Source: an uncultured Clostridia bacterium (GTDB lineage Bacteria; Bacillota; Clostridia; HGM11514). Taken from it: a stretch of 64,000 nucleotides of DNA. Location of the stretch: NCBI GenBank assembly GCA_934464705.1, contig CAKSKB010000008.1, positions 1,591-65,590 of the forward strand, in the 5' to 3' direction. The position numbers and the translations under genes were made by a program. Of the stretch, positions 33,205 through 49,793 are shown piece after piece (within the stretch, counting starts at the first letter, position 1; each line of letters opens with the position of its first letter). The notes under the pieces are model-generated. The model made no database searches. It had not been told where the DNA came from and was given only the letters and a program-made list of their open reading frames with translations.

Positions 33205-35412
33205 TTAATCTAATTGAAGAGGCACATCTCTAAAAAAACATTTCACTTCTTCACACTCACTGATATGCCTTTCAAAATTCTCTACATTGTAATCATTAAT
33301 CAAATCTGAGGTTTCAACTATACTCTTTTGCCATTCTGTTTCCATGTTGTCAAAAGCAGATTCAAATGCAGCTTTGGTATCATCCCAATATTTGTTTATA
33401 GCATTATGATACTTATCCAAGGCATTTTGGTCATTAAAGGCAGCTCTCAATTTTTTCGGAACCTTGTTTTTCCAATTTCCTGTAAGTACACCAAAAACAC
33501 CAAGTGCAGCAATAACTGCAGCTGCTATTCCCAAAGTTATAGGTCCTCCTATTGCGGAAACCGCAGAAATTGCAGTAGCTGTACCTCCGCCTATAGATAC
33601 GCCTAATGCCGAAAGAAGGCTGACTCCTTTAGCAACAATTATATATCCTCCCAAATTGCCGAGCGACGACGCCCATAAAGCAAGTCCGCCAAGGGTTGCT
33701 GCACCGGTAAGCCCGGATGCAAATGCTCTTTTGGCATCAAAAGTATTGGCATAACACTTGCCGGAAACTTTAGCAGCCTTACATTCATTTTCAAAATCGG
33801 CTATAACCTCTTCTATTTTTTTGTTTAAACCGACGGTACGGGTATTCAAAACAGCTTCCATTGAATTGCTTAATTCAGAACTTATATATGAACCTAAAAG
33901 CTGCATATCATCTTTTTTGTTCTTATACTTTTTTTGCTCTATGGTTTTTAAAATGAAATCGTCGGATAAAACCCTATCGTATTTATCATCAAAATGTTTT
34001 AGTGATTTTTGCCTTGCATCTTCAATATATGAAATAATACCGCTTTTCTTTTCATCTAATTTAGCTTTTCTCAACGGTTCATTTTTCAATGCTTCGGCAA
34101 CATATTCTTTGCAGTTTTCGCGTTCATTAATAAGCTTGTTGTATCTTTCAATCACCTCATCAATTGAAATAATATTTTCGTTGCAAAAATCCAACACGGA
34201 TTTTACTGCATTATCAGCTATTAATCCGGGAATCCGTTCTATAGTTTTAACAAATTCATTTTCGAAATCACTTCGTATACTTTCAATATCAATAGTATAT
34301 GAAAAGAATCTTTTTCTCATATCGGATTCATCGTAATCAAGACCGGTTACATTTCCCCTGTTTTTCCAAAAATCGTTGGGCAAAGTACTGCAGAACCGTT
34401 CGCAGCCATCATCAAGAATTTCCTCAACAGTATCTTTATTTCCTCTGTTTACGGCATGAGCGTGAGTTGCAACTACAAACAAGTTCGCAAACTTATCAAC
34501 ATTATTTTCCGGATTTTCAATTGCGGCAAGCATATTTAAAGCACTTTTCAGATTTATGCAATCTTCAGAATTAAAAAATCCCATAGCTTGAGACAAATAT
34601 ATAAGAACATCAGCCTTATTTTTTGCCTTTTCCGCAGTAATATTATCGCTTTCCACACCACCTGTGAAGCCGGGCACATCGACTAAATCACAATTTTTAA
34701 GTACGGCGCTGTCAACATAGATAAGGGCTGCACCGATATCGTCAGAACTTGCTTTATAACCTTCACCTTTCCTTGTTCCGTAAGACGAAAGCATTTCGGC
34801 ATTTCCGCCTGCAAGCCGCCATTTTTTGTAGTACTCCTCACATGTCAGTTTTGAATCATCAAAACATTCATCTTCGGTATCTCTTTTCATAATGGTAAGC
34901 TCATCCGAAATAAATTCCGGTCTGTCATCAATATGCTTAACATATACGGTTACCGATGTTGTAGGAGTCCAGTCGGTCGGCATTTTTTCTTTTCCTATTA
35001 GTGCGTTTATCATAGTACTTTTACCGGCATCGGATCTTCCCAAAAATACAACCTTTGGTTTTTTAGCCGCAAACTGCATTATTTCTTTGAGCTTTAACGC
35101 ATAGGTTTGATCAAATCCAACATGATTTTTTAAATAAGAATCAATGTAATTATCCAATATATTTTTTTTGTACCTTACCTCGCTCCAGGCATCTTCAACC
35201 TGCAACACCTTCGGCATAGGTTTTTCAAAAGAAACCAGCTGATCAAGCGTCATTCCTGTGCGAATTGCAATTTTTTGCAATACATCCAATGAAATTTGCT
35301 CCGGATTCTTTTCCAATCTTGAGATTGCATCCTGACGCATTTCCAAAAGAGCGGCAAATTCAGCCTGAGTCATTTTCAAACTATTTTCCCGAAAATTTTT
35401 CAAATCAAACAT
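33205..35412 (-). CDS. Fusion protein: N-terminal XRE-family HTH + dynamin-like / TRAFAC-class GTPase + helical stalk + C-terminal glycine-rich membrane paddle
   Basis: HTH_XRE: MTQAEFAALLEMRQDAISRLEKNPEQISLDVLQKIAIRTGMTLDQLV. GTPase: G1 GRSDAGKST, G2 threonine region TDWTPTTS, G3 DVPGFTGG, G4 NKAD. Long predicted coiled-coil middle region. An 80-aa Gly/Ala-rich hydrophobic segment (GLTGAATLGGLALWASSLGNLGGYIIVAKGVSLLSALGVSIGGGTATAISAVSAIGGPITLGIAAAVIAALGVFGVLTG), then a roughly 95-aa helical tail. RBS GGAGG 8 nt upstream of the ATG. Confidence 0.7.
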   Translation of the reverse strand: MFDLKNFRENSLKMTQAEFAALLEMRQDAISRLEKNPEQISLDVLQKIAIRTGMTLDQLVSFEKPMPKVLQVEDAWSEVRYKKNILDNYIDSYLKNHVGFDQTYALKLKEIMQFAAKKPKVVFLGRSDAGKSTMINALIGKEKMPTDWTPTTSVTVYVKHIDDRPEFISDELTIMKRDTEDECFDDSKLTCEEYYKKWRLAGGNAEMLSSYGTRKGEGYKASSDDIGAALIYVDSAVLKNCDLVDVPGFTGGVESDNITAEKAKNKADVLIYLSQAMGFFNSEDCINLKSALNMLAAIENPENNVDKFANLFVVATHAHAVNRGNKDTVEEILDDGCERFCSTLPNDFWKNRGNVTGLDYDESDMRKRFFSYTIDIESIRSDFENEFVKTIERIPGLIADNAVKSVLDFCNENIISIDEVIERYNKLINERENCKEYVAEALKNEPLRKAKLDEKKSGIISYIEDARQKSLKHFDDKYDRVLSDDFILKTIEQKKYKNKKDDMQLLGSYISSELSNSMEAVLNTRTVGLNKKIEEVIADFENECKAAKVSGKCYANTFDAKRAFASGLTGAATLGGLALWASSLGNLGGYIIVAKGVSLLSALGVSIGGGTATAISAVSAIGGPITLGIAAAVIAALGVFGVLTGNWKNKVPKKLRAAFNDQNALDKYHNAINKYWDDTKAAFESAFDNMETEWQKSIVETSDLINDYNVENFERHISECEEVKCFFRDVPLQLD

Positions 35413-35500
35413 ATTTTTTCCTCCGTGCTTTTTATTTTAACAATATATTATCACATAATTTTCATTTTGTCAAGTGGTGTTTTGCATTTTTTTATATTAT

Positions 35501-35518
35501 TTATGCATAATTGCATAA
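35501..35518. promoter_or_regulatory. Inverted repeat TTATGCA-N4-TGCATAA in the promoter region of the HTH-GTPase gene; candidate operator
   Basis: ttatgcat aat tgcataa at 35501-35518, about 90 nt upstream of the HTH-GTPase start codon, between the upstream terminator and the RBS. Confidence 0.3.
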
Positions 35519-35531
35519 ATAATATAAAAAA

Positions 35532-35557
35532 ATGGGTTCGCCGCATTGCGAACCCAT
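35532..35557 (-). terminator. Rho-independent terminator after the giant SLH protein gene
   Basis: atgggttcgc-cgcatt-gcgaacccat hairpin followed on the minus strand by TTTTTTTATATTATTT. It separates the giant gene from the HTH-GTPase gene. Confidence 0.65.
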
Positions 35558-35565
35558 TATATTTT

Positions 35566-48971: not shown

Positions 48972-49004
48972 AGTTTCTGCCTCCAATCAATGTTATTCCA
49001 AATA

Positions 49005-49673
49005 TTATTCAAAACCTCTTTCGGCGGTTGCAATCGCCTTGGAGATTATATTTTCAGCCGCAGCGTTAAGGTCAAGCGAAAGAACGGTGTTTATCACTTC
49101 TTCCCGCTTTTCGTCCGGCACACCGTACACCCTCATACTGCAATCCAGGAACCTTTTAATCTTATTCTCAACCGTAAAGTAAATATCACACGGTTTTGCC
49201 ATAAATCCGCGCATTATGCCGCCGGAGGCAATCTCGAGTTCATAAAAATCCTTTTTCTCGCCGCCGGGAACATATTTTCCGAATATACTTTCGATTTTAT
49301 CCGCCATAGTTGCATAAATATAATCCGAAGTGCTCGGAAGTGAATATGCGGCAACATAAATCTCCCTCAGCGCCTCGGAAGTTTCGGTTATATTAATCTG
49401 AATACCGGTTTCGATTCCGTACAGAACCAAAGGGTCGTCCGAAAATGCAGAAAGCTGTTCGGCGCCCAAAAACTGCCCCGAAAACATGAATTTAACCAAA
49501 GTCAGAAGCAGCTCCTCCTTGGTTGAAAACGCAGCAAAAAATGAGGTTGCGGACAAACCTGCAGCCTGTGCAATACAAGCGGTTGTTGTTTTTTCGTATC
49601 CTTTTTCAAGGAAAAGAACAACCGCAGCATGAATCATCTTGTTCCGCCGTTCGATACCTTTTTTATGTAACAT
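49005..49673 (-). CDS. TetR/AcrR-family transcriptional regulator
   Basis: N-terminal HTH RRNKMIHAAVVLFLEKGYEKTTTACIAQAAGLSATSFFAAFSTKEELLLTL. 222 aa. Ends 33 nt upstream of the giant PLAT-protein start. Confidence 0.85.
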   Translation of the reverse strand: MLHKKGIERRNKMIHAAVVLFLEKGYEKTTTACIAQAAGLSATSFFAAFSTKEELLLTLVKFMFSGQFLGAEQLSAFSDDPLVLYGIETGIQINITETSEALREIYVAAYSLPSTSDYIYATMADKIESIFGKYVPGGEKKDFYELEIASGGIMRGFMAKPCDIYFTVENKIKRFLDCSMRVYGVPDEKREEVINTVLSLDLNAAAENIISKAIATAERGFE

Positions 49674-49710
49674 ATAAAACCACCATTCAAACTATACTTA
49701 TGAGCACACT

Positions 49711-49724
49711 TTTGAGTATACTCA
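49711..49724. promoter_or_regulatory. Perfect 14-bp palindrome TTGAGTATACTCAA upstream of the TetR gene; candidate TetR operator overlapping a -10-like TATACT
   Basis: The sequence ttgagtatactcaa is its own reverse complement. It lies 38 nt upstream of the TetR start codon. On the minus strand, a TTGAAA -35-like element lies upstream of it. Confidence 0.5.
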
Positions 49725-49793
49725 AATTTTAACATACTTTTTCAAAAAAAGCAATAGGATTTTTAAAAATAGTTGAATTATTTTAAAAAGAAA

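Follow-up and report, generated by a model that had tools for sequence, protein, structure and literature searches.

Analysis of a 64,000-nucleotide (nt) stretch of genome from an uncultured Clostridia bacterium (assembly GCA_934464705.1, contig CAKSKB010000008.1; hereafter the window, whose numbering is used throughout) reveals two adjacent genes, here called giant1 and giant2, that are members of a large, uncharacterised, paired family of predicted giant surface proteins in Bacillota. We propose, with a probability of roughly 0.6, that region 35566–49754 is one autoregulated operon, tetR-giant1-giant2, whose products would form a heteromeric, inducible complex at the cell surface that binds or captures a target. 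By kind, the pair falls among the known SLH-anchored giant surface proteins, with a TetR-controlled member in the window.

Organization of the proposed operon

The survey of open reading frames (ORFs) places four minus-strand genes, for a TetR-family regulator, giant1, giant2 and a protein with a helix-turn-helix (HTH) and a dynamin-type domain, between ileS (50303–53056) and lspA (49839–50339) on one side and an MreB/Mbl gene (31523–32509) on the other. The first gene of the operon, tetR (49005–49673, minus strand), codes for 222 amino acids (aa) and is followed by giant1 (42060–48971, minus strand; 2303 aa), whose ATG stands behind a GGAGG site, and by giant2 (35566–42045, minus strand; 2159 aa), in which Pfam recognises FIVAR, Flg_new_2 and three SLH domains. 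Only 33 nt separate tetR from giant1, and giant2 starts 14 nt past the giant1 stop; a good ribosome-binding site lies ahead of each giant gene, that of giant2 being GGGGAGGA. A hairpin scan found no terminator inside tetR-giant1-giant2, and strong ones flank the trio. The upstream operon boundary is marked by a terminator-like hairpin after lspA (49792–49819, minus strand), consisting of a 12-bp stem and a T-run, and a second outer terminator-like hairpin follows the dynamin gene (33167–33201, minus strand). The initial annotation had described four co-oriented genes of these sizes and positions, the two short gaps and the two outer terminators, and in all of this it was correct. The GC content and the GC content at third codon positions (GC3) of the three genes are native, GC3 having values of 0.50–0.52 in the two giant genes as well as in ileS and mreB. 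Scanning the window for Rfam families and tRNAs returned nothing, and no riboswitch or leader was detected in it. As far as can be read from the DNA, tetR, giant1 and giant2 are a genuine, non-random and probably co-transcribed unit.

The operon promoter, read as a sigma-70-type promoter at 49726–49754 (minus strand), comprises TTGCTT (49749–49754), a 17-nt spacer and TAAAAT (49726–49731). Directly after this -10 box stands the perfect 14-bp palindrome TTGAGTATACTCAA (49712–49725), which would overlap the transcription start. It is real, as the initial annotation had noted, and occurs once in the window; as a binding site for TetR it is a candidate. The palindrome by itself is a weak signal, a match with two or fewer mismatches arising in 12 of 100 shuffles, and its reading as an operator relies on its position and on its conservation in relatives. 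Indeed, a close relative (L014) has TTGAGTGTACTCAA at the equivalent place within the same promoter arrangement, and in two diverged tetR loci (L016 and L017) other palindromes occupy the same position. The regulator itself has an N-terminal TetR-type HTH (PF00440, E 1.7e-12, 47.3 bits against a cutoff of 24), and no ligand-domain family of Pfam or NCBIfam was matched by its C-terminus. Because palindromes recur at the same position in diverged loci, we propose that a TetR dimer bound to the palindrome abutting the -10 box would keep its own operon off until a small ligand frees the promoter.

Two further observations concern this part of the locus. The start codon of tetR is uncertain: in nine of the ten conspecific contigs listed (L102–L111, 3652/3688–4320) the gene is called as 210 aa, from an internal Met (MIHAAVV...). 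In L016, from another genus, tetR and giant1 are 200 nt apart, and in this spacer lies an inverted repeat that is long and nearly perfect (ttgtctgtaggtttggaatattttttt...aaaaaaatattccaaatctacagac, at 2975–3090 of that locus). It might act in attenuation, in termination or as a second operator, and it has no counterpart in the window.

Conservation and distribution of the giant pair

A genome scan with one genome per species yielded 80 loci, of which 67 were evaluable in a survey of ORFs combined with BLASTP. In 63 of these 67 a giant1-like gene (~2150–2540 aa) lies directly upstream of the giant2-like gene on the same strand, and three further loci have a distant ORF of ~1720 aa in the giant1 position. 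The gap between the two genes has a median of 12 nt across loci, and several pairs overlap. The genome loci contain 55 full-length giant1 orthologues, all directly upstream of giant2 homologues, so that the mere three full-length relatives of giant1 returned by word-indexed protein searches, run with giant1 alone and with a 24-sequence profile, are read as a limit of the indexing and not as rarity. One giant1 homologue, at 44% identity (P0002), is part of a TetR-giant1-giant2 arrangement between panBCD and DUF2178/HTH genes in another genus; for another, at 40% identity, the order is giant1-giant2 followed by unrelated genes. Moreover, all ten conspecific contigs with an identical LspA, which come from different samples, carry lspA-TetR-giant1. 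Thus the trio is a self-contained operon that is placed differently in different genera and is fixed within the species.

Searching with giant2 residues 1–1820 gave more than 120 clusters from Oscillospiraceae, other Clostridia, Lutispora, Ruminiclostridium and many Paenibacillus, and these relatives end in SLH domains, in a dockerin or in nothing. An exhaustive HMMER search of the giant2 family gave 1126, 662 and 202 clusters (50% identity) at E≤1e-3, 1e-10 and 1e-30, respectively. Most members have 2000–2800 aa, and those with a name are called "hypothetical" or after an anchor or accessory domain, none informatively. Identity of the pair from Clostridia to Paenibacillus is 30–60%. The pair extends further, to distant relatives of Lachnospiraceae type, of which four (27–31% identity) were inspected: a giant ORF lies directly upstream in three (L094, L095, L097), the fourth contig (L096) ending within its upstream ORF, and the upstream ORF of L094 (2585 aa) matches the giant1 profile, terminal module included, with E 6e-31. 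The carriers come from polysaccharide-rich habitats, namely gut, rumen, digester and soil or plants; cultured ones are Paenibacillus spp., Acetivibrio sp. MSJd-27 and Lutispora saccharofermentans. No description of the pair was found in the literature on giant Bacillota surface proteins and related domain combinations, and a preprint on microbial GAIN/MAIN domains makes no mention of PLAT, FIVAR or the giant pair family.

At two loci, L057 (Paenibacillus rhizoplanae) and L085 (a complete Clostridiales metagenome-assembled genome, MAG), all that represents the pair is a series of many short ORFs, which are either decaying pseudogenes or the product of frameshift errors in long-read assembly.

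Exchangeable regulators, proteases and anchors

Whereas the two giant genes stay together, the genes around them are exchanged. A TetR-family gene is found upstream in 17 loci and falls into two lineages, of which the second matches TetR structures in the Protein Data Bank (PDB) and usually shows an overlap of 4 bp between its stop and the giant1 start. At 15 loci a TetR-like gene comes immediately before giant1, mostly with this 4-bp overlap. The upstream gene of 24 loci (Paenibacillus, Flemingiibacterium, Sedimentibacter) codes for a secreted Peptidase_C11 that carries SLH, that of a distant paralogue set in Paenibacillus for a trypsin-like peptidase (as in L090), and that of Lutispora for an AraC regulator. 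Distant relatives have either a two-component system together with a downstream Peptidase_S8 (S8 in L094) or MalT-like regulators, and sugar-uptake genes of the ATP-binding cassette (ABC) type adjoin some loci. Some genomes hold two diverged copies of the pair, and in Paenibacillus the second copy (1720 + 2570 aa) has the trypsin-like peptidase ahead of it instead of C11.

The anchor is exchanged as well. At the C11-type loci giant2 stops at ~1896 aa, in some cases with a dockerin, and is followed by an SLH protein of ~530 aa, a separate gene in Paenibacillus, Flemingiibacterium and Sedimentibacter, which aligns to residues 1821–2158 of the window giant2. This alignment reveals that the window giant2 is a fusion of the core with the anchor protein. 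The occurrence of proteases in the operon points to proteolytic maturation or release, and the separate anchor to non-covalent anchoring. The latter arrangement, a dockerin-bearing giant2 orthologue next to a separate SLH protein in Paenibacillus and some Clostridia, resembles cellulosome-type anchoring, in which an SLH-anchored cohesin protein holds a dockerin-bearing scaffold, as does wall attachment through an SLH adaptor. On the other hand, the ~530-aa partner at L039:15670–17259 has no cohesin match, no dockerin enzymes are linked to the pair, and the dockerin (PF00404) that is present in several giant2 orthologues is missing from the window giant2, where the anchor is fused.

Giant surface proteins with a dedicated protease are known from LapA/LapG, SlpA/Cwp84 and fragipain/BFT. 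The giant operons of many lineages share with them a secreted protease gene, here of three unrelated classes (C11, trypsin-like, S8); they differ in that their proteases are not homologous to LapG or Cwp84, in that the cleavage site is a candidate only, and in that the window operon has no protease.

Domain structure of giant1

Giant1 has a signal peptide for the Sec pathway, no wall anchor and no Pfam match of its own. The PLAT domain attributed to it by the initial annotation is a mixed case: with the window copy no match to PLAT is obtained, even when the threshold is relaxed to E≤10, whereas PF01477 matches 12 of 18 aligned orthologous N-termini, with a best E of 1.9e-10. Alignment with these orthologues suggests a degenerate PLAT/LH2-like N-terminal domain at residues ~33–150 (48522–48875, minus strand), in which the AGTD motif is replaced by AGDSGTPNG; the call would therefore hold only indirectly, through the orthologues. 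The remainder of the protein is built of β-rich modules, each of its own kind, in a row; in about eight of them the start is a (I/V)D-x3-PP-type motif that comes after DxxGN, and a few orthologues reach the Ig-like Pfam families Bact_surface_Ig-like, Big_3_2 and Y_Y_Y. Conservation rises from 0.22–0.27 in the N-terminal third to 0.40–0.54 in the last 600 residues. This most conserved part (residues ~1700–2303; 42063–43874, minus strand) contains Ig-like units with DxxxPP starts and a terminal GQMK...GWYT.YVQTDKRDY module that is still recognisable in a distant Lachnospiraceae partner. NCBIfam and PADLOC returned nothing for either giant, and neither gene contains DNA tandem repeats.

Domain structure of giant2

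Giant2 combines an N-terminal Sec signal sequence with three C-terminal SLH domains (35569–36108, minus strand; PF00395, E 1.2e-28), which a PDB profile match relates to the SLH domains of Sap (E 3.7e-19). A search of the giant2 profile against PDB sequences matched the SLH domains only. Before the anchor, the C-terminal half consists of further unique β-modules and then of two linkers, FIVAR (residues 1823–1882) and the InlB-B-repeat-like Flg_new_2 (residues 1904–1974), together spanning 36124–36579 (minus strand). The anchor region is the least conserved part of the protein.

There are two peaks of conservation. One is the N-terminal head (residues ~28–310; 41116–41964, minus strand), which was assigned to a galactose-mutarotase-like supersandwich and contains many invariant polar residues, including the GHWANLANTRYDY motif. 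Both peaks lie within the region covered by an AlphaFold2 model of residues 28–1160 (38 sequences, mean predicted local distance difference test score, pLDDT, of 74). The modelled part is all-β, with Ig-like domains and a β-domain after the head, followed by a disordered acidic loop (residues ~774–840; 39526–39726, minus strand; pLDDT below 50 in both models described here), which is a candidate processing site. Just behind this loop lies the second conservation peak, a central Gly-rich up-and-down β-meander of ~18 strands (residues ~840–1130; 38656–39528, minus strand).

The head raises the question of whether the complex processes polysaccharide, with the head as a catalytic (lyase-, hydrolase- or mutarotase-like) or glycan-binding module and the rest as a scaffold. 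Its many invariant charged and aromatic residues would fit such a role, as would the AraC/MalT-like regulators and sugar ABC systems by some loci, the dockerin of some orthologues, and the glycoside hydrolases and cohesin protein encoded elsewhere in the window. We nevertheless consider this explanation rather unlikely: no member gives a CAZy-type catalytic match in Pfam or NCBIfam, the supersandwich is usually an accessory, non-catalytic domain, and the nearby carbohydrate genes are not consistently linked to the pair.

A second structure model, of residues 585–1140 (pLDDT 77.8), was compared with the PDB by Foldseek. The matches were the FimD usher, LptD, VDAC/TOM40, SDBC (8agd) and ApoB100, with template modelling (TM) scores of 0.14–0.37; at such low scores the likeness to barrels is probably one of local sheet geometry and not of a shared barrel. 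Within the meander, one face of the ~14 strands of residues 895–1129 is aliphatic and the other consists of polar or small residues, the two kinds alternating strictly along the strands. A combination of SLH domains and a large porin-like up-and-down β-sheet in one protein is also found in OmpM and SlpA/SDBC of diderm Firmicutes, Deinococcus and cyanobacteria. In giant2, however, the SLH domains are C-terminal and not N-terminal, the β-region is internal to 2159 aa, and the TM score for SDBC is 0.14.

Paenibacillus has no outer membrane, and the Paenibacillus and Clostridia carriers are presumably monoderm. This bears on the reading in which a PLAT tip and an amphipathic porin-like β-sheet act on the membrane of another cell, as a toxin-like or contact-dependent device that targets membranes or lipids. 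The PLAT match of the orthologues, the transmembrane barrels and the ApoB100 β-belt among the best PDB matches of the meander, its single hydrophobic face over ~14 strands, and proteases in the operon, as for the activation of a pro-toxin, can all be cited for it. We regard it as quite improbable, given that Foldseek TM scores of 0.2–0.37 suggest local strand geometry, that the hydrophobic face could equally be a protein-protein interface, that the PLAT motif has decayed in the window organism, that there is neither an immunity gene nor a toxin domain, and that monoderm carriers would be without barrel-assembly machinery. Two related candidates were dropped altogether: a Tc-toxin or RHS-cocoon, for which there were no sequence matches and only a marginal Foldseek match to a teneurin-like protein (probability 0.07), and an intimin-like inverse autotransporter, for which the domain order is reversed and an outer membrane presumably absent.

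The same meander leads to a different proposal, namely that the pair is an unrecognised, widespread surface machine of monoderm Bacillota. The porin- or usher-like amphipathic β-sheet core of giant2 would then form a ring or groove, either to hold or thread giant1 or to accommodate a ligand of hydrophobic nature, and the operon proteases would activate or release it. We give this idea a small share of our confidence.

The HTH-dynamin insert

The fourth gene (33205–35412, minus strand) encodes a protein of 735 aa with HTH_3 and Dynamin_N domains according to Pfam. It lies in an insert of 2405 nt (33161–35565, minus strand; GC 0.36) that is specific to the strain and, as comparison of the junctions reveals, replaces the native giant2 terminator. 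GC content falls from 0.47 to 0.36 over the insert, and GC3 of the dynamin gene is 0.30 against 0.50–0.52. Between giant2 and the dynamin gene stand the best terminator of the whole region (35531–35558, minus strand; an 11-bp stem followed by TTTTTTAT) and a near-consensus extended -10 promoter, TTGACA-17-TG-TAATAT (35445–35473, minus strand). Three conspecific or near-conspecific contigs are without the gene: L014 (92–98% protein identity) reads ileS-lspA-TetR-giant1-giant2, and L098 and L099 (giant1 99% identical) have the same gene order, an ORF of 102 aa and mreB following only 50–70 nt after giant2 in all three. No dynamin neighbour was found at any other giant-pair locus. Its full-length homologues also have the HTH and stand alone, on mobilizable plasmids of Carboxydocella (43% identity), Lactococcus, Lactiplantibacillus and Acinetobacter and in phage-like elements of Vibrio.

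The initial annotation had taken all four genes as one strain-variable accessory island for adhesion or a contact-dependent surface apparatus. Its notion of a non-random module stands for TetR-giant1-giant2, in view of the 63 paired loci and of the trio in another genus. On a contact-dependent apparatus as such, the results speak neither way. It does not extend to the dynamin GTPase, which has its own promoter and terminators; the internal terminator, the promoter and the drop in GC had been overlooked. For a four-gene island one can cite the shared orientation and adjacency of the genes and a Gly/Ala-rich hydrophobic segment towards the C-terminus of the dynamin protein (near residues 565–650), which is compatible with membrane association. 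The terminator and promoter, the absence of the gene from the three contigs and from all other pair loci, its deviating GC3 and its stand-alone homologues on mobile elements speak against it, and in our view synteny already refutes this model, which we would hold to be very improbable indeed. Nor is the surface-protein block variable between strains, all ten conspecific contigs carrying it at lspA and its GC3 being that of housekeeping genes; variable presence, suggested as a synteny comparison to make, applies instead to the 2.4-kb dynamin insert, which is also foreign in composition. Judging from these comparisons, the HTH-dynamin gene is an independent, horizontally acquired single-gene cassette outside the surface-protein unit.

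The cassette may be defence-related. Its protein has a dynamin-type G domain (PF00350, E 6.6e-15) and matches LeoBC (6e-21) and LeoA (7e-17) in PADLOC over the G domain only (residues ~83–275); an exact look-up of the protein found no record. It thus shares with the dynamin-like anti-phage system Eleos (LeoA, LeoBC) and with bacterial dynamin-like proteins the G domain and a mobile, strain-variable location, and differs from Eleos in being a single gene with an N-terminal Cro/C1-type HTH and no LeoA+LeoBC pair. The insert may represent a hitherto undescribed family of one-gene systems for defence or plasmid maintenance.

A model for the giant pair

Coming back to the tetR-giant1-giant2 operon, both giants would be exported through Sec, and the three SLH domains at the C-terminus of giant2 would attach that protein to the wall. 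Giant1 lacks such an anchor and may be held by giant2 through its conserved C-terminal third, giving a heteromeric complex of ~490 kDa. The variable N-terminal ends, the degenerate PLAT of giant1 and the galactose-mutarotase-like head of giant2, would point outward to bind or capture something outside the cell, the most plausible target being a particle or surface rich in glycans. Where a lineage has a protease, cleavage, perhaps at the acidic loop, would mature or release the complex. We favour capture of, or attachment to, glycan-rich material because of the polysaccharide-rich habitats of the carriers, the AraC/MalT regulators, the sugar-uptake genes, and the GH123, GH127, β-helix, sugar permease, cohesin and further SLH genes of the window; it is the weakest step of the model.

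In several respects such a complex resembles the fibrillar adhesins of Gram-positive bacteria: the giants are very long, Sec-secreted and multidomain, with a C-terminal wall anchor (SLH), Ig-like modules and a distal N-terminal head. The definition of fibrillar adhesins includes tandem stalk repeats and a recognised adhesive domain (PMC8286594), and the giants have neither. They also differ in that their length and domain order are conserved across classes and in that there are two partners, one of them without an anchor.

A number of results weigh against the proposed binding complex. Self-similarity searches at E≤10 found no repeats in giant1 or giant2, hence no tandem stalk, and no adhesive or catalytic domain was recognised by Pfam or NCBIfam in the window proteins and 20 orthologues. 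A simple adhesin model assigns no role to the conserved amphipathic β-meander. From Clostridia to Bacilli the giants keep their length and domain order to a high degree, which is more in keeping with a fixed machine or lattice than with an adhesin that evolves fast. More generally, a classical adhesin explains the fixed length, the unique domains and the conservation of the meander no better than a defined machine or lattice does, and the rival explanations accordingly keep appreciable weight. As regards regulation, BLASTP detects no mutual similarity between the two TetR lineages, so that control by TetR is not ancestral to the family, and for the window both co-transcription and repression by TetR are deduced from sequence. 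Finally, a search of the window for a C11 protease found none, so that this operon has no adjacent protease.

Among these rivals is a two-component lattice or sheath, in which the giants would self-assemble on the wall like a two-protein S-layer instead of binding a ligand. It would account for SLH anchoring, the strict pairing and tight coupling of the genes, the conserved length and domain order without repeats, and the dedicated proteases, as in maturation of the SlpA/Cwp84 type. The regulators, however, are of inducible kinds (TetR, AraC, two-component, MalT-like) as opposed to constitutive strong expression, some genomes have several paralogous pairs, and in size the giants exceed typical S-layer proteins about twofold; a lattice seems to us a rather unlikely alternative. 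The paralogous pairs in question are L020 and L031 of one MAG (CAKSNH01) and L076 and L093 of Paenibacillus polysaccharolyticus BL9.

Other genes in the window

Two small, conserved ORFs lie between the giant operon and mreB, and both are also present in L014. One, on the minus strand at ~32550–32755, codes for a Cys-rich protein of ~68 aa (CxxC...C...C); the other, on the plus strand at 32858–33166, codes for 102 aa with a hydrophobic N-terminus and no Pfam match. Towards the start of the window, a minus-strand gene (989–2221) encodes a 410-aa protein with Cohesin, Big_4 and Cu_amine_oxidN1 domains, and the adjoining gene (2301–4937, minus strand) an 878-aa protein with Big_4 and three SLH domains. 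These two genes (989–4937) indicate that the organism has cohesin-based surface assemblies, yet neither giant shows a dockerin. Beyond mreB, a carbohydrate-use cluster (21793–31318) comprises GH123, a GH127-like gene, a right-handed β-helix protein, two sugar ABC permeases and an EIIC_2 component of a phosphotransferase system.

Significance

The correction of the earlier grouping makes the dynamin-like GTPase cassette relevant to surveys of defence systems and not to surface proteins. As to the giants, two genes of nearly 7 kb each represent a large share of the coding capacity of many gut, rumen, digester and soil Bacillota, although giant1 is without any database annotation and giant2 is known only by its anchor. 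The obligate pairing, the swapped regulators, proteases and anchors, and the existence of cultured carriers turn ~1,100 clusters of "hypothetical giant protein" into a defined, testable system. If the β-meander were barrel-like or lipid-facing in organisms without an outer membrane, this would be surprising envelope biology. There is a modest chance that this core marks a genuinely new envelope apparatus, and the pair, if it is indeed a surface machine, would represent a new class of such apparatus beyond another adhesin.

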